DNA of 64,000 bases from an uncultured Bifidobacteriaceae bacterium (GCA_964640655.1 CAZXFT010000006.1:73686-137685), one strand, 5' to 3'; positions 5,301 through 22,628 are shown, counted from the first letter of the stretch. Notes: generated by a model not told the origin, from the sequence alone. Numbers and translations: made by a program.

Positions 5301-5754
5301 TGTTGTTGGATGCAAATAATTTTTTGATTTCAACAGGGTTCAAATACAATGCATCACTCATATTTTTGTAACTGTCATACGCAGAGTAAACCGTATTAAA
5401 AGATGTATCCAGCACCCAAACTGTTGAGTAACCATATTCATTGATTAAGGAGTTGATAGTGTTTCTCTCTATAAAATTTACCTCTTTAGCATTCTCCTTT
5501 TTTGTAATGGTGTCGGATATGATGTTCACATAATTGAACAATAAATCCGATAACGAAAACTCGTTTGTTACAATACGAAGATCTTCACTTTTCAGTTCAA
5601 TGATCTTTGACATGTTCACGCTATTCTCACGTATTTTCAGTTCAATTAATTCATTGAATGATTGTGATTCAAAGTATTTATTTAGCCCAAATCCGGCTAG
5701 GAAGAGAACAAAAAATAGTGTTGTTATTAATATAATACGAAACTGAATCTTCAT
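2314..5754 (-). CDS. hybrid sensor histidine kinase / response regulator (sensor domain, PAS, HisKA, HATPase, 2x REC, HPt)
   Basis: An N-terminal TM, an extracytoplasmic region of about 270 aa and a second TM. These are followed by a PAS-like segment, the H-box [17 protein letters not shown] (ATPase G2), two receivers ([20 protein letters not shown]) and a C-terminal HPt (HKMRGT). Confidence 0.9.
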
Positions 5755-5800
5755 ATAGGGGCTAAATAACCAGGTGTTTTAGGTTTGATTAGGTATGAAA

Positions 5801-6628
5801 TTACTTTTTTGAAAAACTGTATGCTACCGTTAATCCACCGTTAGCTAATACACCTTTACGCTGGTTAGAATATGAACGCATAAAATTACTAAACAGACTG
5901 AACTGTGGTTTAAAGGTTATCCGATCAGAAACTTCATAGGTTGCAAACAACTCAACCCTTGAATTACGCAATGTTTGAGGTGCGTTGTTCTTAGATTTGA
6001 TAATAAATTCTGATTTAGGTTGAACCGGAACAAAAAATTCAGTGAAAGCAGCATTTCCCCAACCCATTAAAACCCGGGTATCTATACTTAAGCGATGATT
6101 TACACGAGCTTCCTTATAAAAACCATACTCAACTTGAAATGCTCCAAAATTTCCACACACATCAACCATTGGATTAATCATAACACCTACCGGCTCTAGT
6201 TCATATTTTACTGCAGTGCTGAGTAAGGTGGTGAAGATGTTTTTAAAGTTAGAAGGATAGAAAAATGATGTCAGCTGAGGAACTACAGATAACTGTTGCG
6301 TTAATCTTTTTTCATAGCTTACAAATAAGTTTATGTCCGGATTGTATTTGCTGCCGTTATTAACCATTAGAGGCATGTGACTCCAACTTTGAATCTTTAA
6401 ATCTCCGTATTGAGCCAACAAACTAGGACGGGTTACCACACCGGAGTAAAATTCAATCCCTTTCCAGACATAACTGTTCGTAAGGGTTTGTTCTGTGCTG
6501 TATTTCCAATGAGGTTTTTCCTTAAACACAGTTGTGTCAGTAGCAATCAGGAGACCTGAGGCTTCTTGTGCATAGGATGATACCGTAATTAACATACAGA
6601 TAATCAACAAATTGTAATGAATTTTCAT
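5801..6628 (-). CDS. hypothetical outer-membrane beta-barrel protein
   Basis: Signal peptide (..VSSYAQE), alternating amphipathic strands throughout, and aromatic-rich C-terminal strands. No family was recognised. Confidence 0.45.
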   Translation of the reverse strand: MKIHYNLLIICMLITVSSYAQEASGLLIATDTTVFKEKPHWKYSTEQTLTNSYVWKGIEFYSGVVTRPSLLAQYGDLKIQSWSHMPLMVNNGSKYNPDINLFVSYEKRLTQQLSVVPQLTSFFYPSNFKNIFTTLLSTAVKYELEPVGVMINPMVDVCGNFGAFQVEYGFYKEARVNHRLSIDTRVLMGWGNAAFTEFFVPVQPKSEFIIKSKNNAPQTLRNSRVELFATYEVSDRITFKPQFSLFSNFMRSYSNQRKGVLANGGLTVAYSFSKK

Positions 6629-14955: not shown

Positions 14956-16233
14956 TTAAGAAAAAATTTTCAGATTTTCCATGTCAATCAATTGTTCACG
15001 CTCTGGTCCTATAGAAAGTAAAGCTACCTTAACATTGGTTTTAGCCTCAATATATTTTAAGTATTTGAGCAAAGCATCAGGCATGTGTGTGGTATTAAGT
15101 TCTTTTCCAGCCCACCCTTCAACCCTCTCATAGAGTGGTTCTACCGGTGTGTTGCACAAATCATATGGCACTTCGTTAGTTTTGAAACCATCAATCTTGT
15201 ATTGAGTGCATACTTCAATTTGTTTAAAAATTGAAAGAACATCTGCTTTTGTAATAATCAATTTGGTGGTGCCGCTCAACATAATGGTATAGTATAATAC
15301 CGGAAGGTCTAACCAGCCGCAACGGCGCGGACGACCTGTGGTTGCGCCAAACTCTGCACCTTCTTTTCTGATCAGCTCCCCTGTTTCGTCGTGTAACTCT
15401 GTTGGAAAAGGCCCACTACCTACCCTTGTACAATATGCTTTGGATATACCAAACACATCTCGGATGTGAGTGGGTGCAATGCCAAGACCTGTGCAAGCTG
15501 CAGCAGCCATAGTATTGGAAGATGTAACAAAAGGATAAGTACCAAAATCGATATCGAGCATAGAGCCTTGGGCTCCTTCCGCTAATACATGTTCTCCTTT
15601 GCGAAGCAATTCATTTACATAATACTCGCCATTAACCAGATTTTGAGTACGCAGATGTTCAATACCTGCAAACCATTGCTGTTCCAATTCTTCGAGGTTG
15701 AACGAAAAATGATATTGCTCGAGTAACCTGAGGTGCTTTTCTTTAAGTGCAGAGTATTTTTTCATAAACTCAGCGCTTTCAATATCACCTACCCTCAATC
15801 CGTTACGTCCTGTCTTATCCATATAAGCAGGACCAATTCCTTTTAAAGTAGAACCAATTTTATCGGCACCCTTTGACGCTTCAGATGCTGCATCCAGCAT
15901 TCTGTGTGTTGGTAGAATGAGGTGTGCTTTACGAGCAATAAATAAACTCTTCTTCAGTTGGTTTCCCAGAGATTCCAGCTTAGTCATTTCCACTGATAAG
16001 GTGATTGGGTCTATCACCACTCCGTTGCCTATAAGGTTTAGCATGCCCTCATTAAATATTCCTGAAGGCACTGTGTGCAATACAAATTTCTGTCCGTTTA
16101 TTTTCAAAGTATGACCTGCATTGGGTCCACCCTGAAAACGTGCAATCATAGAATAACGTGGAGCGAGGTAATCAACTATCTTACCTTTTCCTTCATCTCC
16201 CCATTGCAAACCAATCAATACATCTACTGCCAT
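14956..16233 (-). CDS. purA: adenylosuccinate synthase
   Basis: GLQWGDEGKGKIVD P-loop, GTTGRPRRCGW, 425 aa. Confidence 0.95.
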   Translation of the reverse strand: MAVDVLIGLQWGDEGKGKIVDYLAPRYSMIARFQGGPNAGHTLKINGQKFVLHTVPSGIFNEGMLNLIGNGVVIDPITLSVEMTKLESLGNQLKKSLFIARKAHLILPTHRMLDAASEASKGADKIGSTLKGIGPAYMDKTGRNGLRVGDIESAEFMKKYSALKEKHLRLLEQYHFSFNLEELEQQWFAGIEHLRTQNLVNGEYYVNELLRKGEHVLAEGAQGSMLDIDFGTYPFVTSSNTMAAAACTGLGIAPTHIRDVFGISKAYCTRVGSGPFPTELHDETGELIRKEGAEFGATTGRPRRCGWLDLPVLYYTIMLSGTTKLIITKADVLSIFKQIEVCTQYKIDGFKTNEVPYDLCNTPVEPLYERVEGWAGKELNTTHMPDALLKYLKYIEAKTNVKVALLSIGPEREQLIDMENLKIFS

Positions 16234-16297: not shown

Positions 16298-16645
16298 CTA
16301 ATGATGATGACCCTGCTTCTGGCAACAAGCAGGTAATTTATGATACGCGTCATGATCAGCTTTAATATTATCAGCATCATAACCCAATTTTGAAATTGTC
16401 TGGCTGATGGCATCGGCACTTGACTTAGTATTGTTAAAAACAACTGTTATTTCGGCTGTTTTTACATCCAAGACAGCAGACTTAACACCTGCTATAGCCA
16501 GCACAGCATCTTCAATACGTTTCTTACACATGTCGCATTGTGCAGAAGTTATAATGATGATGGTTTCTTTTTTCTTTTGGGCAAATGCATGCTCTCCTAT
16601 TGTAAAAATGACAAGAAGAGCGAGTAATAGATTTTTTGTTTTCAT
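16298..16645 (-). CDS. secreted heavy-metal-associated (HMA) domain protein
   Basis: Signal peptide, then an HMA fold with the CxxC metal site (SAQCDMCKKRIE). The C-terminal tail is PACCQKQGHHH. Confidence 0.8.
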   Translation of the reverse strand: MKTKNLLLALLVIFTIGEHAFAQKKKETIIIITSAQCDMCKKRIEDAVLAIAGVKSAVLDVKTAEITVVFNNTKSSADAISQTISKLGYDADNIKADHDAYHKLPACCQKQGHHH

Positions 16646-16668
16646 GATTTTTTATTGATTGGTTAAAG

Positions 16669-18879
16669 TTATTTAAAAGAGTATCGAATTCCGGTGTAAA
16701 CTATTCTGCCCATTATTGGACCCCAGATCATGGCTGCGTCAAAGCCGTTATCGAATGGAGCATAAGGATTGATGATGGGGTTATTTTGTGTAAAGGCATT
16801 CAGATTTTCGCCACCCACATACCATTCCAGGTTTTTCAACTGATATGTTACCTGCGAAAGTACCCTGAAGTATGATGGTGAGTATTGCCTGTAATTCTCT
16901 CCGGTATAATTCAAATTAGATGCTATGCGTTGCTCTCCTACCCACTGCACTGTGGCATCAATCTTCAGCTTTTTCTTAAACAAAGAATACGCAGCATTGA
17001 ACATTCCGCGCCATTGAGGTGTGAATGGACGTTGTAACAATTCATTATGATAGGTAACCTGAACCTGATTCCATTTTATTGCGCTAAGTAAATTCAGATT
17101 CTTAACGGGCTCGTATTGAACCTGAGCCTGTATACTGTTGGCATAAGAAACTCCTGATAAATTATAGAACCACAGTTGAGAATATGATTTATCAATATCC
17201 ACTACAATCTGATTCAGGAACTGCGTCCTGTATGCATCAACCGAAACCTGTAATTCACGTTCATTGACATCAAAGTTCTGAGTGTAGTTGATGCCGTAGT
17301 TGAGTGCATATTCCGGTTGCAAAATTCCATCAATAATTATCTCGCGTGAGGACACCAGATAATTCAGATTTTCCTGAATAATGTTGGCAACACGCCAGCC
17401 GTATCCTGCTGATGCACGAATAAAAGCTTCCTTGCCGAGTTTGTATCTCAGATGTATACGTGGTGCGGCATATATTCTTTGATTGTTATTGTAATAGTCA
17501 GCACGCAAGCCGGCAATGATTGAAAATTTATCGCCATTATCGTATGTCCATTCTGCAAATAATCCGGGAATAACATCGGTTCGTGAAAGATTGATGCTGT
17601 CAATGTTTTGTGTGTAACTGCTATACATCAATCCACCACCGAAACGATAGATAATTTTCTCATTGCGTGGTAACAGCTGAAAGTTTGAATTCAGATATAG
17701 TGTTTGTTCATTGGCATTATAAATTCTATTACCAATTTGAGTTTGCTGTTCATGATTTGCCAGGTTAATCTGCAAGCCTAACTCATTATTCTCATTGTGG
17801 AATAACTCCATGCATGTTTTGGCAAAAACTTCTTCACGATGGTATCGTGTACGAAACAGATACTTCTGAAAAACAGCACCGTCCGGCAAATGATGTACGT
17901 GCTTCAAAGTATTAAATGACTGTGCATCATCATAGTGAAATTTGAAACCAATATTCGTTTCCTTACCATGATTGCTGATGTGCTGCCAGCGATGAATTCC
18001 GGTGAATACATTGTAAACCGGATTATCCAGAAAACTATCTTTGTTAAAATCCATTTGTAATTGTGCCGAACTGCCATGCAGCATGGTCAGTGCTTTCCAT
18101 TTTTTAAAATTATTCCTGAAATAAGTATTTAGTTCTAAGCGCTGCTGTGAATTGGCATAAAGATTCAACATAAACTTATCGGCATCGTATGGTTTGATAA
18201 GTTCCACATCAATCTGACCGGTAATGCCTTCGTAGCTGTTTGCTACCGAGCCGGGACCTTTGCGTATGTATATGTTGTGAATAAATGGACCGGGCATTGC
18301 AGTTAATCCAGTAATAATATTCAATCCTCTTAAATCAGGAATCATATCCGTAAGCATTTGAACATAAATACCTGAAAGACCAAGCATTTGAATTTGTCTT
18401 TGACCGGTAACCGCATCAGCACTGCTGCCGTCAATTGTTGGATTACTTTCAAAACTCTCTGCCAGATTGCAACAGGCGTTTTTCTTTAAACCTTCAGAAG
18501 TAATCACTTCAGTCTTAAGAGTTTGAATGCTTGATATGTAAGACTCGTCGAGCTTACCTGTAATAATGACACCACTGAGTTGTGTGATATCCTGTAAGGT
18601 GATGTTGAGGTTATCGGGTACCAGAAATATGGTATCAGTTTTATATCCCGGATATGAACAGATAACGATGTCGTATTCCTCCGGCAGTTGAATAGAATAA
18701 AATCCGGTACTGTCGCTGTAAGTAAAAAATTTATTGTCTGCGGTATGGATTGATGCAAGATACAGTTTGTTGAGTTGCTGACCACTACTGCCTTGCACTA
18801 CACCGGAGTATGTTGTTTGAGCATAGCTAAATGCGATGCTCCAAGTAATTATTGTGGTAAAAATTGAAATGAATTTCAT
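16669..18879 (-). CDS. TonB-dependent receptor with N-terminal carboxypeptidase-regulatory-like domain
   Basis: Signal peptide, a CarboxypepD_reg-like beta-sandwich (YSGVVQG..GFYSIQLP) and a plug. The 736-aa barrel ends in GIRYSFK. The plug carries a vicinal Cys pair (KKNACCNLAESF). Confidence 0.85.
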   Translation of the reverse strand: MKFISIFTTIITWSIAFSYAQTTYSGVVQGSSGQQLNKLYLASIHTADNKFFTYSDSTGFYSIQLPEEYDIVICSYPGYKTDTIFLVPDNLNITLQDITQLSGVIITGKLDESYISSIQTLKTEVITSEGLKKNACCNLAESFESNPTIDGSSADAVTGQRQIQMLGLSGIYVQMLTDMIPDLRGLNIITGLTAMPGPFIHNIYIRKGPGSVANSYEGITGQIDVELIKPYDADKFMLNLYANSQQRLELNTYFRNNFKKWKALTMLHGSSAQLQMDFNKDSFLDNPVYNVFTGIHRWQHISNHGKETNIGFKFHYDDAQSFNTLKHVHHLPDGAVFQKYLFRTRYHREEVFAKTCMELFHNENNELGLQINLANHEQQTQIGNRIYNANEQTLYLNSNFQLLPRNEKIIYRFGGGLMYSSYTQNIDSINLSRTDVIPGLFAEWTYDNGDKFSIIAGLRADYYNNNQRIYAAPRIHLRYKLGKEAFIRASAGYGWRVANIIQENLNYLVSSREIIIDGILQPEYALNYGINYTQNFDVNERELQVSVDAYRTQFLNQIVVDIDKSYSQLWFYNLSGVSYANSIQAQVQYEPVKNLNLLSAIKWNQVQVTYHNELLQRPFTPQWRGMFNAAYSLFKKKLKIDATVQWVGEQRIASNLNYTGENYRQYSPSYFRVLSQVTYQLKNLEWYVGGENLNAFTQNNPIINPYAPFDNGFDAAMIWGPIMGRIVYTGIRYSFK

Positions 18880-18939
18880 CAGAAATGATTTTTAGTAATG
18901 AATGAAATGAAAGCGGAATAATTATCACGCATCAATTCA

Positions 18940-19293
18940 TCACAACCTAAACACCTGAATGTATATGAGATAGTTTTCTCCATGTAGAACAGGCGGAGAA
19001 GTGTCACAAGCAAAACAAAAATCAACACATTCAACGGATTGAACCGTTTGGTAAAACAAATCGGTTGAGAGGATTATAAACTCTGATAAAAACTGTACAA
19101 AATGATGAGTCAGCTGAAATACTGTATCCAGCTTTGAATAATACATGTGTGTTTCACATTTCTTTTTGGAATCGCAGCAGGCATGTGTTTCTTCAATGAC
19201 TGAAATGCCGCAACAACAATGATACAATGCTATACCATTAGTGGCAAGGGTAAAAACAATTAAGGTTAATATGACCAATGCTTTGCGCAACAC
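18940..19293 (-). CDS. small Cys/His-rich membrane-anchored protein
   Basis: 117 aa with a GTG start and an N-terminal TM. Motifs are LYHCCCG, THACCDSKKKCETH, ECVDFCFAC and SPP. From memory it resembles the small family named HYC_CC_PP in NCBI annotations; this is unverified. Confidence 0.5.
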   Translation of the reverse strand: MLRKALVILTLIVFTLATNGIALYHCCCGISVIEETHACCDSKKKCETHMYYSKLDTVFQLTHHFVQFLSEFIILSTDLFYQTVQSVECVDFCFACDTSPPVLHGENYLIYIQVFRL

Positions 19294-19331
19294 AATACAA
19301 AAGTATCACATCTATCCGGAATTGTATTTAA

Positions 19332-20201
19332 TTAGTGTTTCAACACCTCGTAGTCTTTATACAACGTCAGCAGTTTTGTATAAATAACTGCTTGGCGAAA
19401 GTCTTTTCTTTCCTGAGCAATAGACTTTGCACGTTTAAAGCCTCCGGTGTAATACCTGAAATAAATGGGAAATACGGTTGTAAATCCTTCGAGTACACCT
19501 ACTGTAACTATGCTGCGGGCTGTGAAAAAAAAGAATAGAGAAGTTATGGTGAGCGAGTTCAAACCATTTTTAATATCACCTGCATAAAATTGACCCGTAC
19601 CCGGAACAATCATAGATAGTATCATCGCCGTGTTCGGGTTCAATTTATTAACGTGTTGGAGTTCACGCCATATCTTATTATAACGCTCATACAACACCGG
19701 AGAACTTACAGAATCAAAAAGTGATGAGAAAAACCGCTCTGCCTGTTCAAAATCGTTGAGCCCATAATAAATACAGGCCTGATATAATTGAGTTTGTCTT
19801 TTTTCCTTTTCAGTATCATTATTCACAGCATATATATCCTGCAATGCCAGCATGTAATCTTTACTTATAATTAAGTTTTCTGCACGCTTCATCAGCAGTG
19901 CGTCTTTAAGACTGTCGTTATCAGTAGTGAAAAATGCCATATCATAATAGGCATTTGCTTTTCGCAAGCTATCCAAAGCGTTAAAGCAATCTCCAATTCT
20001 GATTAAGCAAGCAGTATTTACATCTCCGGGACTAAATAGTAAAACTCGCTGATAATGAATCACCGCACGCTGAAACTGTCTCTGAGCGAAAAGATGATCA
20101 GCATAATCCAGCGTTTGCCGAACATCCTGCGCCGCAGCAGTGAGGCTAATAAGAACCGAGAGAGATATAAATCTGCCTGCTCTTTTTAATAAGTTCATCA
20201 T
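19332..20201 (-). CDS. TPR-like repeat protein with C-terminal membrane domain (paralog B)
   Basis: The start is set at ATG 20201 (MMNLLKRAGRFISLSVLISLTAAAQD, a signal peptide). A helical-repeat middle is followed by IVPGTGQFYAGDIKNG and then TM helices. It overlaps the upstream paralog by about 56 nt. Confidence 0.6.
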   Translation of the reverse strand: MMNLLKRAGRFISLSVLISLTAAAQDVRQTLDYADHLFAQRQFQRAVIHYQRVLLFSPGDVNTACLIRIGDCFNALDSLRKANAYYDMAFFTTDNDSLKDALLMKRAENLIISKDYMLALQDIYAVNNDTEKEKRQTQLYQACIYYGLNDFEQAERFFSSLFDSVSSPVLYERYNKIWRELQHVNKLNPNTAMILSMIVPGTGQFYAGDIKNGLNSLTITSLFFFFTARSIVTVGVLEGFTTVFPIYFRYYTGGFKRAKSIAQERKDFRQAVIYTKLLTLYKDYEVLKH

Positions 20202-20973
20202 TTTTTGTTCGGTTAAATTTCTGTGCTGATTTGGCAGAGCCATAAATATTTCCAAGGTAAAATCCGGTGGAGAGACCGCCGAAAATCCAAAACTTTGCAC
20301 TTTCAAAACCATTACGATTATAGCCTCTATATGCCTGAAATGAAGTGGCAGAAAGCATAATCAAACTAATAGCTCCGTCTTTCCAGTTTCCTGTATAAAC
20401 TTTTCCGCTGCCGGGTATAATTGCAGACATTGCACCGGCAACAAACCCTGAACGATGCTTGACTTGCCTGCTTTGTTCCACTAACTTATCGAATGGTTCA
20501 AACAACAGTGTATTCATTGAATGTGAATCTGAATAAATCCGTTGAACTTCTTTCCAGTCAGATTTCTGAAAGGCATATTGTAAATTCATCAATCGTTTTA
20601 AGGTATCGTTAGAGATTTGTGAAGCAAACAAACCGAGTGTTTCACTCTTCTTCCCAACCAATAGTTTTGAATGCAACATAGCGGCGGTTTGGTTGGAGAA
20701 TTTGTCTTGATCAAACAAACGATTGGAAGCGGCTATGCCTTCATCATATTTAGAAGCACGCAGACAGGAACTCAGTAAAAAGTACTTGGCTGTATCATTT
20801 TGTTTGTTAAGGAATATGGCTCGTTCAAATTCATCTATTGCGGCTACATATTGACCGGAGAAATACAAATAACGGGCAAACTGCATAGTATGATTTTCAT
20901 CGAACAAATCAGTTTGTTGTGCGTGAGAAAATAAAGAGATGAAAGTAAGTATGAATAACGCGCCGTATTTCAT
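20146..20973 (-). CDS. TPR-like repeat protein with C-terminal membrane domain (paralog A)
   Basis: Signal peptide (..LFSHAQQ), a helical-repeat middle, then IIPGSGKVYTGNWKDG followed by TM helices. Its ATGA overlaps the stop of the YidD-like gene. Confidence 0.6.
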   Translation of the reverse strand: MKYGALFILTFISLFSHAQQTDLFDENHTMQFARYLYFSGQYVAAIDEFERAIFLNKQNDTAKYFLLSSCLRASKYDEGIAASNRLFDQDKFSNQTAAMLHSKLLVGKKSETLGLFASQISNDTLKRLMNLQYAFQKSDWKEVQRIYSDSHSMNTLLFEPFDKLVEQSRQVKHRSGFVAGAMSAIIPGSGKVYTGNWKDGAISLIMLSATSFQAYRGYNRNGFESAKFWIFGGLSTGFYLGNIYGSAKSAQKFNRTKNDELIKKSRQIYISLGSY

Positions 20974-21347
20974 TCCACAGGGTCAATAAATAATTGTCGT
21001 TTATAATCGTAAGGATATTTATCAGGATTTAATCCATTGCAACGTGTTAATCTGTCGAAGGTCATCAGCGAACCTAAAACGACACCTTTCTTATTGATGG
21101 CCTGCAAGGCATACTCTGAGCAGGATGGCGTAAAGGTGCAACTGGAGCCATCTTGCGAAGAGATAACACTTTTGTAAAGAATAAATAATGTAGTTAATGT
21201 AACTGTAACTTCATTAGTAGCGTTCCTTAAACTAAAATGATGATGATGCTTGTGCGTGTCAGCAGCATGCATAAGTCGATCAACATCCTGAGCCTGAGAA
21301 AAGCAGGAAAGACTAATAAGCGCTGGTGTTATAATTATAAATTTCAT
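20970..21347 (-). CDS. YidD-family (membrane protein insertion efficiency factor-like) paralog with signal peptide and His tract
   Basis: YidD core LYKSVISSQDGSSCTFTPSCSEYALQAINKKGVVLGSLMTFDRLTRCN. It is preceded by a signal peptide and DTHKHHHHF. Confidence 0.75.
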   Translation of the reverse strand: MKFIIITPALISLSCFSQAQDVDRLMHAADTHKHHHHFSLRNATNEVTVTLTTLFILYKSVISSQDGSSCTFTPSCSEYALQAINKKGVVLGSLMTFDRLTRCNGLNPDKYPYDYKRQLFIDPVE

Positions 21348-21999
21348 TTTCGTTGGTGGCGTTCACTACAATGTTCTTATAGGTAGTTACCTTGTAATAT
21401 TCTTTTCCGTTGATGTAGTTTATCTGAGTAATCTGTGTAGGAAAATTCAGTCCGTTGACCGTTATATAATCTGTAAAAAACTGCTTCGATAAAATGTTGT
21501 CCTTATTATCGAAGAAAATTAATCCATGGAGCATTCTTTTCTTTTGCGAGATAAGTATTTTGCCGGTAAGTTCTTTCAGTTTGGTTGTAGAAGGCTCCCA
21601 CGTGGATATTACCAGGCTGTCCTCTTTAGATACATCTGTGAGTATAAAAATTCCATTGGAGTTTAAACCGTAATTGGAAAGATTACTCGACAATGCAAGA
21701 TTGAAGATTGAGAACTGCAACAGGTTAACGGCTTTTTTCTTTTCTGAAAGTTTGTTGTCTTTTATTTCATAGAAAAATGAATCAGATAATACCTGAAACA
21801 GTTTCTTTGGAAAAGAAATATTGTAAACCAACTTCTTGGTGTTCTTATCAAAATAAACAGTACCCATAGTCAGGTTGGATGTACCATCCGGTAAGTTTTC
21901 TTTGATGCTAAACCCGGTTTTTATACGATAGTGTTGCTGTGCATTAGTTACGGAGAAAATGCATAATAAAATAAGTATTGCAGTGAGGTTCTTAAACAT
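21313..21999 (-). CDS. hypothetical secreted protein (LolA-like fold suspected)
   Basis: The start is set at ATG 21999 (MFKNLTAILILLCIFSVTNAQQ). An all-beta pattern of about 200 aa is reminiscent of LolA/lipoprotein-sorting folds. The track extension to 22065 begins inside a terminator hairpin. Confidence 0.45.
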   Translation of the reverse strand: MFKNLTAILILLCIFSVTNAQQHYRIKTGFSIKENLPDGTSNLTMGTVYFDKNTKKLVYNISFPKKLFQVLSDSFFYEIKDNKLSEKKKAVNLLQFSIFNLALSSNLSNYGLNSNGIFILTDVSKEDSLVISTWEPSTTKLKELTGKILISQKKRMLHGLIFFDNKDNILSKQFFTDYITVNGLNFPTQITQINYINGKEYYKVTTYKNIVVNATNENEIYNYNTSAY

Positions 22000-22034
22000 A
22001 GGTGCTTTTTTGCACGGGCTTGCAAATATGGTGC

Positions 22035-22065
22035 AAAAAAAATGTCCGGCACTGTGGCCGGACAT
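22035..22065 (-). terminator. rho-independent terminator downstream of ORF 22090-22554
   Basis: Minus-strand transcript: AUGUCCGGC-CACAGU-GCCGGACAU followed by UUUUUUUU. That is a 9-bp GC-rich stem, a 6-nt loop and 8 U. Confidence 0.7.
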
Positions 22066-22089
22066 TTAATATGCTTTGACTAAAATCTA

Positions 22090-22554
22090 CTAATCTACGC
22101 TGGAAGCCCAGAAAGCTGAACCACCGAAGATCAACACTACGAAGATGATATACAGCAAGAAGCCGCCAACCCATCCAACTAAGCAACCATAAAGGGCTTT
22201 TTTGGTTTCATCAGAATCTTGAGTAACTAAATAAGTAATCAGGATACCAATCCATCCAAGTACACAACCCCAGATGAATGAAGGAATGCCTAAAGCACCT
22301 TCTGTTAATGCAGATAAAGTTGATGTTGATTCAGTTAAGTTAACGCCATTGATAATGTCGTTGTTTTCAGTTTGCAACTGATCCAATGTAACACCCTCAT
22401 GAGAAGCTACATAGTTTTCTACTTGAGATAACTGATTCATTTCGGCATTCACTTTGTTTTTGTTCAATTGGAACAATGATGCATTTCCTGCTGATGCACT
22501 AAAGATAACGCAGGAGCTTGCTACAAAAGCAAGTAAAAGAGATTTGATTTTCAT
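22090..22554 (-). CDS. hypothetical secreted/membrane protein
   Basis: Signal peptide, a polar Asn/Gln-rich region, and two C-terminal Gly-rich TM helices (GCVLGWIGILI, GCLVGWVGGFLLY). Confidence 0.5.
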   Translation of the reverse strand: MKIKSLLLAFVASSCVIFSASAGNASLFQLNKNKVNAEMNQLSQVENYVASHEGVTLDQLQTENNDIINGVNLTESTSTLSALTEGALGIPSFIWGCVLGWIGILITYLVTQDSDETKKALYGCLVGWVGGFLLYIIFVVLIFGGSAFWASSVD

Positions 22555-22628
22555 AGATATTTGTTTGAGGTTTTAATTAGTAATGTGACAAAAGTATTGA
22601 ATCAGATTAAAAAAACAACTTTTTCTTC

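Follow-up and report, generated by a model that had tools for sequence, protein, structure and literature searches.

The stretch of DNA analyzed here (the window) comprises 64,000 nucleotides (nt) from an uncultured bacterium labelled Bifidobacteriaceae (GCA_964640655.1 CAZXFT010000006.1:73686-137685). At positions 19332-21999 a gene encoding a YidD-domain protein with a predicted signal peptide is located between a gene for a LolA-fold protein and two genes for tetratricopeptide repeat (TPR) proteins, and the question raised by the locus is what a YidD domain does in such company. Canonical YidD of Escherichia coli is an accessory of the YidC insertase, and YidD is nearly universal in bacteria. 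To our knowledge, no biochemical activity has been assigned to it. We consider it probable, at about 0.6, that positions 19332-21999 hold the four-gene core of an envelope cassette, that the products would act as a periplasmic complex handling hydrophobic cargo, and that a small membrane protein, sm154, is the usual companion of the core. Any specific cargo is given a much lower probability than this overall statement. The novelty lies in where a known YidD domain is found, in a compartment new to it and as part of a gene set that is itself new and widely conserved. All genes of the locus are on the minus strand, and coordinates are positions in the window. The genes of the cassette are:

22090-22554, minus strand: sm154, small membrane protein of 154 amino acids (aa), a frequent fifth member of the cassette
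21313-21999, minus strand: LolA-like (LolA-fold) gene, open reading frame (ORF) with a product of 228 aa
20970-21347, minus strand: YidD-like gene, ORF with a product of 125 aa
20146-20973, minus strand: TPR-A gene, ORF with a product of 275 aa
19332-20201, minus strand: TPR-B gene, ORF with a product of 289 aa, start MMNLLK

The gene junctions had been described as very tight in an earlier note on this DNA, and they were found to be so. The LolA-like and YidD-like genes overlap by 35 nt, the YidD-like and TPR-A genes by ATGA, and the TPR-A and TPR-B genes by 56 nt, followed by a gap of 38 nt. The same note placed the YidD-like gene outside the rnpA-yidD-yidC context, which was borne out. In the window and in about 70 loci it is flanked by the LolA-fold and TPR genes, whereas canonical yidD is found in the order rpmH-rnpA-yidD-yidC (PMC10502375).

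The same block was identified in about 70 other genomes in a scan of 185,579 species genomes. The carriers belong to Cytophagales, Saprospiraceae, Chitinophagales, Bacteroidales, Flavobacteriales and a few Spirochaetota; those in culture are Marivirga, Cyclobacterium, Emticicia, Lacihabitans and Jiulongibacter, and otherwise there are many metagenome-assembled genomes (MAGs). Hidden Markov models (HMMs) made from the window proteins were compared to six-frame ORFs of the first 87 loci. The LolA-fold gene was matched in 75 loci, the TPR genes in 78 (two per cassette) and sm154 in 64, while the genes for a Cys-rich protein, a receptor, an HMA protein and PurA, located 3' of TPR-B in the window, were each matched in one or two. 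The order sm154, LolA-fold, YidD, TPR, TPR was nearly invariant. When only cassettes with enough flanking sequence were counted (at least 1.7 kb for sm154), the LolA-fold gene was present 5' of the YidD paralog in 63 of 65 cassettes, a second TPR gene in 70 of 70, and sm154 was located 5' of the core in 54 of 61. Reading frames overlap at the TPR-A/TPR-B junction in 89% of loci (median -35 nt) and at the YidD/TPR-A junction in 56%. The window genes form part of a cell-envelope cassette of five genes that is widely conserved in Bacteroidota, and its four core genes stay together in the same order with mostly overlapping reading frames.

These loci also bear on the extent of the unit. Seven genes, from the LolA-like gene to the HMA gene, had been proposed to form one system that joined the YidD-like gene to the receptor and HMA genes. 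The seven are contiguous, yet they are not one conserved unit, as 78 of the first 87 loci have the TPR genes and just one (L002) has the metal module. The conserved unit extends the other way and takes in the small membrane protein located 5' of a terminator.

Several genomes carry two cassettes, in tandem in Marivirga atlantica (L016) and divergently arranged in L052, L067, L068 and L070. In the latter four the second four-gene type is more divergent but has kept the signal peptide, and copies of sm154 are located between the cassettes; in L070 the second-type YidD-like protein, which retains the signal peptide, has ISPQ at the SSQD position. Rearrangement was seen in a single cassette, that of L037, a MAG labelled Deltaproteobacteria, in which the YidD-like gene is located about 1 kb 3' of the TPR pair and not between the LolA-fold and TPR-A genes. 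Several of the MAG labels (Bifidobacteriaceae, Deltaproteobacteria) seem to belong to Bacteroidota contigs that were binned wrongly. PADLOC and Rfam scans gave nothing specific, and full-text literature searches turned up nothing on an exported YidD, on this cassette or on a function for DUF5683.

The YidD-like protein was said to keep the conserved YidD core. It matches PF01809 with E = 5.6e-19 and 68.1 bits (cut-off 27) and the TIGR00278 equivalog with 63 bits (cut-off 40), and both matches are above the curated cut-offs. In NCBI records the name given to annotated members of the family is "membrane protein insertion efficiency factor YidD", because they pass the TIGR00278 cut-off; for an exported family this name probably mis-states both location and role. 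The parts of the protein are:

Residues 1-19: signal peptide, predicted cleavage SQA/QD on the basis of the Q-rule
Residues 32-37 (nt 21237-21254): H-K-H-H-H-H, within a variable linker
Residues about 46-125: YidD core, with Cys70, Cys76 and Cys103

Database search gave 78 homologues of 97-154 aa, of which 25 were aligned (alignment A1). Nearly every sequence in A1 has an N-terminal hydrophobic segment, followed by a variable linker and an invariant core comprising F55, Y58, K59, S63, Q65, D66, C70, F72, P74-Y79, G88, G92, F97-R99, R102, C103, G105, Y111 and D122. Residues C70, C76, C103 and D122 are invariant also in the alignment with canonical YidD. The protein has the PF01809 domain in common with canonical YidD, with about 47% core identity to canonical genes of other phyla, and keeps all YidD-invariant residues, including C-x5-C...C and the terminal DPV. 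It differs in having 125 aa and a cleavable signal peptide followed by a linker of about 25-30 aa, compared to a canonical YidD that is small (about 70-100 aa), lacks both elements and acts at the cytoplasmic face. It further has SSQD where canonical YidD has ISPxx and, unlike canonical YidD, a TFDRLTRCNGL motif and a 10-residue insertion before DPV. The latter corresponds to what had been taken for a C-terminal extension; it is really an insertion of about 10 residues that separates RCNGL from the conserved DPV at the terminus.

A small residue followed by Q is a Bacteroidetes signature of signal peptidase I substrates (PMC5837995), and the occurrence of these two residues after the hydrophobic region (the Q-rule) was used in place of SignalP. 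The N-termini of YidD-like proteins were taken from 80 genome loci. Nearly all cassette-linked copies open with M-K/R and a hydrophobic stretch, after which come a small residue and Q. In canonical YidD controls from the same scan (Nitrospiraceae, Gallionella, Spongiibacteraceae, Aquimonas) the first Cys is reached about 25 residues after the start, and an N-terminal hydrophobic segment is lacking. The Q-rule was found to hold in 64 of 70 YidD-like, 49 of 52 LolA-fold, 64 of 68 TPR-A and 68 of 72 TPR-B proteins. The signal peptide claimed for the YidD-like protein is therefore a family-wide feature, which agrees with the claim that a YidD fold has been repurposed outside the cytoplasm. A mis-called start codon, which would do away with the signal peptide, had been named as a possible error; since the hydrophobic segment and the Q-rule site are kept in about 70 orthologues, the start is not mis-called. 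As the four core proteins all carry signal peptides of the signal peptidase I type, they act beyond the cytoplasmic membrane. A lipoprotein signal at Cys15 of the YidD-like protein was rejected because this residue is not conserved in A1.

A look-up of exact matches to the YidD-like protein gave one contig of 1.5 kb only, and that for the LolA-like protein gave Logan contigs carrying the same locus. On some contigs (L088-L090) the YidD-like gene is uncalled, which leaves a gap between the LolA-fold and TPR-A genes.

Whether the core itself is exported turns on the helix that precedes the first Cys. The signal peptide could be cleaved and this helix could serve as a stop-transfer anchor, so that only the linker would be periplasmic and the core would face the cytoplasm as in E. 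coli, a topology that would keep the known site of action of YidD. Residues 46-65 are indeed fairly hydrophobic (Kyte-Doolittle mean over 17 residues 1.15 in the family, about 1.5 in the window), and the positive charges of the E. coli amphipathic helix have been lost. The helix is no longer cationic-amphipathic, with a hydrophobic moment of 0.22 in the window and a family median of 0.31, compared to 0.63 for the helix of E. coli YidD. However, on the Hessa scale summed over 19 residues it amounts to +5.5 to +17 kcal/mol in all 70 members and is of transmembrane (TM) grade in none of them, resembling the soluble LolA-fold control (median +10.7 kcal/mol) and not the TM helices of sm154 (median -0.8). 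An invariant Lys59 is located within the helix, and the invariant acidic SSQD after it, together with K/R on its N-terminal side, is the reverse of the positive-inside rule. Judged by these values the helix cannot act as a second membrane anchor, and a tethered, cytoplasm-facing YidD is unlikely.

The neighbouring gene was called LolA-like from the start. This was found to be correct at the level of fold but not of sequence. The protein has a predicted signal peptide cleavage site TNA/QQ, and Q21 is invariant. Its AlphaFold2 model, made from 34 sequences, has a predicted local distance difference test score (pLDDT) of 92.2 and a predicted TM-score (pTM) of 0.83, and Foldseek gave 84 matches in the PDB at E <= 0.001; among the 50 listed, LolA, LolB and LolA-superfamily proteins predominate. 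The best match was the LolA-superfamily protein 3buu (E = 2.6e-10), LolA of Pseudomonas aeruginosa was among the top matches, and LolA3 of Porphyromonas gingivalis (9tp6) matched with E = 3.4e-9. Likeness to the LolA/LolB superfamily is seen in an unclosed beta-sheet trough with internal helices and in the signal peptide of the signal peptidase I type, and the model has about 13 strands and a short C-terminal helix, as LolA3 is described. At the sequence level the window protein had no Pfam or NCBIfam match at E <= 0.1, and none of 82 database homologues had a match to either; within the family, 2 of 34 members matched LolA_like weakly and 3 of 34 matched DUF4292. A profile search of PDB sequences with the family found no LolA, and orthology to LolA3 was rejected at the sequence level (no PDB profile match, about 10% identity). 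The family profile gave 657 clusters (50% identity) at E <= 0.001 among 1.84 billion representative proteins, and the best 150 of these are mostly about 180-280 aa long. Since the proteins lack a Pfam or NCBIfam match and yet make up 657 clusters, we regard them, by sequence, as a distinct and unnamed family.

LolA takes over lipoproteins from LolCDE and passes them on to LolB or the outer membrane. The LolA-fold gene is always beside the YidD paralog, and it had neither lolCDE nor lolB adjacent in the loci inspected. The nearest comparison is with Bacteroidota LolA paralogs dedicated to one pathway, LolA2/LolB2 of a flexirubin locus and LolA3. LolA2 and LolB2 serve the flexirubin locus specifically, and a mutant from which all five LolA/LolB proteins are missing can live and still exports surface lipoproteins (PMC11885536). 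In P. gingivalis LolB is dispensable, LolA3 does not pair with LolB, and the work points to alternative lipoprotein routes (PMC13103446). By analogy there is precedent for a LolA paralog serving one pathway, and trafficking independent of Lol seems to exist in Bacteroidota (PMC11885536, PMC13103446). For such alternative lipoprotein routes the cassette, conserved and equipped with a LolA-fold carrier of its own, would be a concrete candidate.

The fold also invites comparison to RseB/MucB, in which case the LolA-fold protein would sense mislocalized lipid or lipopolysaccharide and signal via the TPR membrane proteins, as part of a module that senses lipids or envelope stress. In favour of this, a structure of RseB (2v43) was matched by the fold at E about 5e-5, and the components are all periplasmic. 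The match is nevertheless weak compared to the LolA-type matches (TM-score 0.28); no sigma factor, anti-sigma domain, kinase or output domain was found in or beside the cassette in about 75 loci; and the YidD domain would have no role. We find a module of this type distinctly unlikely.

TPR-A and TPR-B are paralogs (BLASTP E = 5e-12, 24% identity) that share the motif I-x-P-G-x-G-x-x-Y-x-G-x-x-K-x-G. TPR-A consists of a signal peptide (SHA/QQ), a TPR region and a C-terminal domain of about 95 aa with IIPGSGKVYTGNWKDG and GFYxGNIYGS motifs, and TPR-B of a signal peptide (AAA/QD), a TPR region and a C-terminal domain with IVPGTGQFYAGDIKNG and PWfqRYYxGG motifs. Of the architecture proposed earlier for the two proteins, the signal peptides, TPR repeats and shared motif were recovered, while the "TM helices" were found to be only marginally hydrophobic. 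TPR-A matches ANAPC3 with 29.4 bits (cut-off 27.2), TPR-B has sub-threshold TPR matches only, and TPR_2 matches reach E = 1e-14 among members of the family. The C-terminal domain has three hydrophobic stretches, all of them marginal; the best 19-residue windows on the Hessa scale amount to +6.3 kcal/mol for TPR-A and +2.2 for TPR-B, with family medians of +5.9 and +3.0. The C-terminal tails are rich in K/R, which would fit a cytoplasmic end. Based on hydropathy, TPR-B could plausibly be inserted as an integral membrane protein, and for TPR-A this is unproven.

The TPR-A positions form a separate orthologous group in 78 of 78 loci and the TPR-B positions in 76 of 76, and by group consensus each has its own conserved C-terminal motifs. 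The alignments describe an ancient duplicate pair of which both members are always kept. Since the two groups are constant and have motifs of their own, the pattern fits an obligate hetero-oligomer. At its start the C-terminal domain shares I-x-P-G-x-G-Q-x-Y-x-G with DUF5683 (PF18935), which it matches by the PGxGQxY motif alone, and with other small membrane proteins carrying this motif (TM2 domain). A DUF5683 match at E < 0.01 was found in 38 of 71 members of the TPR-A/TPR-B family; TPR-B scored 20.8 bits over profile positions 2-24 of 151, below the gathering cut-off of 26.7, and TPR-A had no match to DUF5683. The N-terminal signal peptide and TPR domain of the pair are not defining features of DUF5683 proteins. 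Exported TPR scaffolds such as YfgM (with PpiD at SecYEG), BamD, CpoB/YbgF and PorW/SprE bind proteins in the periplasm, and TPR-A and TPR-B may be likened to them. The similarity to these scaffolds is generic to TPR proteins, with weak resemblance to several periplasmic TPR scaffolds in NCBIfam, nothing specific and no family-level match, and the obligate paralogous pair with its distinctive C-terminal domain is unlike them.

In the fifth member, sm154, the N-terminus is signal-like and is followed by a conserved helical segment; at the C-terminal end two truly hydrophobic helices (about residues 88-109 and 124-146), joined by a TD-DK-ETKKAL loop, form a hairpin (alignment A3). Its best 19-residue window is -3.0 kcal/mol, and TM-grade hydrophobicity was found in 49 of 59 members. 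The family has no Pfam or NCBIfam match. T4SS-pilin matches in 4 of 35 members (best E = 2.9e-4) were judged too weak to take sm154 for a pilin. Several loci have 1-3 tandem copies of sm154, and in one close relative (L092) an extra gene for a 283-aa DUF4190 protein is located between fabD and sm154 (5527-6378).

Altogether, these observations are consistent with a periplasmic complex of the LolA-fold protein, the YidD paralog, TPR-A and TPR-B. TPR-A and TPR-B would make up a heteromeric scaffold at or in the inner membrane, the trough of the LolA-fold protein could shield a hydrophobic moiety of the cargo, and the YidD domain might, from the periplasmic side, promote entry of the cargo into a membrane or its exit from one. 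Acyl chains, a lipid, a lipoprotein and even the hairpin of sm154 are candidates for the cargo, and sm154 may be a membrane partner or a client. A YidD paralog across the membrane, with four fixed partners, would be a new way to learn the role of the YidD fold.

Several points weigh against this interpretation. We infer the complex from gene linkage alone. The membrane integration of TPR-A and TPR-B is doubtful on hydropathy. The Q-rule holds in only 4 of 42 sm154 proteins, compared to about 90-95% in the four core proteins, and with a strong terminator after it sm154 may be a separate transcription unit. The AlphaFold2 model of the YidD-like protein is of moderate confidence only (pLDDT 73, with 56-57 and no secondary structure in the His-tract linker); neither a Foldseek search with this model nor a profile search of PDB sequences gave a match, and a solved YidD structure for comparison is thus lacking in the PDB. 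No yidD other than the YidD-like gene was found in the 64-kb window, to which the search for a canonical yidD was limited, leaving out the rest of the genome. Finally, there is no terminator between TPR-B and the Cys-rich gene, so that co-transcription with the metal genes is possible in the lineage of the window.

A stronger proposal goes beyond the complex. The exported YidD and a dedicated LolA-fold carrier, organized by TPR-A/TPR-B, could constitute an unrecognized insertion/extraction pathway on the periplasmic side that moves a hydrophobic client, either lipidated cargo or the helical hairpin of sm154, between inner and outer membrane independently of classical Lol. We regard this as doubtful. 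If true, the pathway would give the YidD fold its first defined biochemical role and would be a candidate for the "alternative trafficking routes" inferred from viable Bacteroidota devoid of LolA/LolB.

The genes 3' of the core have suggested a different role, in which the Cys residues and the His tract would equip the exported YidD for metal or thiol chemistry within a seven-gene envelope metal system. The features concerned are:

19298-19305, minus strand: -7-like box TACTTTTG, in the 38-nt gap before the Cys-rich gene, consensus match
18940-19293, minus strand: Cys-rich ORF, GTG start
16669-18879, minus strand: TonB-dependent receptor gene, ORF
16298-16645, minus strand: HMA protein gene, ORF
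14956-16233, minus strand: purA, ORF

The seven genes are contiguous on one strand, with a gap of just 38 nt and no terminator between TPR-B and the metal genes. The clade with the H-K-H-H-H-H tract is the clade with the adjacent metal module, and the linker is mildly enriched in His throughout the family (3.8% compared to 1.4% in neighbouring proteins; HxH or HH in 18 of 71 members). However, the module is absent from about 70 cassette loci, and its occurrence beside the cassette is limited to relatives whose YidD-like protein is at least 67% identical (L002, L088, L091-L093). In these, collinearity spans the entire neighbourhood, starting at nuo and continuing through fabD to purA, and adjacency to the module weighs no more than adjacency to purA. 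At 57% identity (L003) the upstream synteny is kept and the genes 3' of TPR-B differ. On two metagenome contigs (L097, L100) relatives of the receptor (35-38% identity) were found beside an HMA gene with no cassette gene, and the receptor-HMA pair is therefore a unit of its own.

The chemistry proposed for the YidD-like protein was not supported either. The His tract is limited to the clade carrying the module and is not a family feature, and it is located in a variable, low-confidence linker that is predicted to be disordered. The three Cys residues are equally invariant in cytoplasmic YidD and are thus not an adaptation to export. Co-occurrence of the tract and the module represents a single evolutionary event and cannot carry the metal hypothesis. 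The -7-like box in the 38-nt gap, kept in 2 of 4 close relatives only, probably marks the boundary to a separate Cys-rich/TonB-receptor/HMA unit (16298-19293), and the metal genes may have their own promoter. As judged from gene content, the three genes are an unrelated neighbouring unit. The seven-gene metal reading is largely refuted as a general statement, and we find it highly unlikely for the locus.

The Cys-rich ORF, which precedes the TonB receptor and HMA genes, has an N-terminal TM helix and a pattern, ATNG[VI]ALYHCCCG..ACC..KK.C.TH...SPP, conserved within the clade. No homologue was found in the protein database, tblastn found conservation only in the close clade, and the ORF was missed by gene callers on several contigs.

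The Pfam YidD family was formerly named "haemolytic domain" for the lytic activity of Bacillus subtilis YtjA (PMC3573977), and as the YidD-like protein is exported it might be a membrane-lytic, haemolysin-like factor with accessory or immunity proteins. This is very improbable. The locus is chromosomal and vertically inherited among housekeeping genes, the protein ends at the canonical DPV and lacks a type IX secretion C-terminal domain, as well as any other means of crossing the outer membrane, and there was no defence-system match in PADLOC. Hardly tenable is a housekeeping yidD with a mis-called start, which can draw on the TIGR00278 score, the NCBI names and the single yidD in the window, but the start-codon part is already refuted by orthologues that retain the hydrophobic segment and Q-rule site down to 40% identity, rnpA or yidC was never the context in the inspected loci, the genomes with two cassettes (L016, L052, L067, L068, L070) have a copy in each, and the family has the SSQD, TFDRLTRCNGL and insertion signatures of its own.

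The relation of sm154 to the core genes was finally considered at the level of transcription signals, which are:

22589-22596, minus strand: putative -7 promoter box TACTTTTG, exact match to the Bacteroidota consensus TAnnTTTG in the fabD-sm154 spacer, 35 nt 5' of sm154
22032-22067, minus strand: intrinsic-terminator hairpin, 11-bp G+C-rich stem followed by a U run, directly 3' of sm154
22021-22030, minus strand: invariant block CATATTTGCA, between the terminator and the LolA-fold gene, a -7-like box with one mismatch

A strong terminator 5' of the LolA-like gene had been predicted in the earlier note and was confirmed. The hairpin has an 11-bp stem (22067-22040) followed by 8 U, folds with -22.1 kcal/mol (z = -6.4), and none of 200 shuffles folded as well. 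Hairpin and CATATTTGCA block are invariant in five relatives (the window, L002, L008, L091 and L093) with diverged flanks. A hairpin followed by a T-run, of unrelated sequence, was found at the same position between sm154 and the LolA-fold gene in 27 of 52 distant loci. The median gap between the two genes is 65 nt. A hairpin at such a constant position looks like a conserved way to set sm154 expression apart from that of the downstream genes. Because sm154 is set apart from the four-gene core by a terminator, a different level of expression is suggested, and either sm154 would be its own transcription unit or the terminator would be leaky. No exact TAnnTTTG was found on the minus strand 5' of the LolA-fold gene, and the CATATTTGCA block is a possible promoter of the four-gene operon. 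Within the 64-kb window TAnnTTTG is rarer than expected, with 43 matches on both strands compared to 80 +/- 8 in shuffled sequences, all 100 of which had at least 43. Such a depletion fits with selection against spurious promoters.

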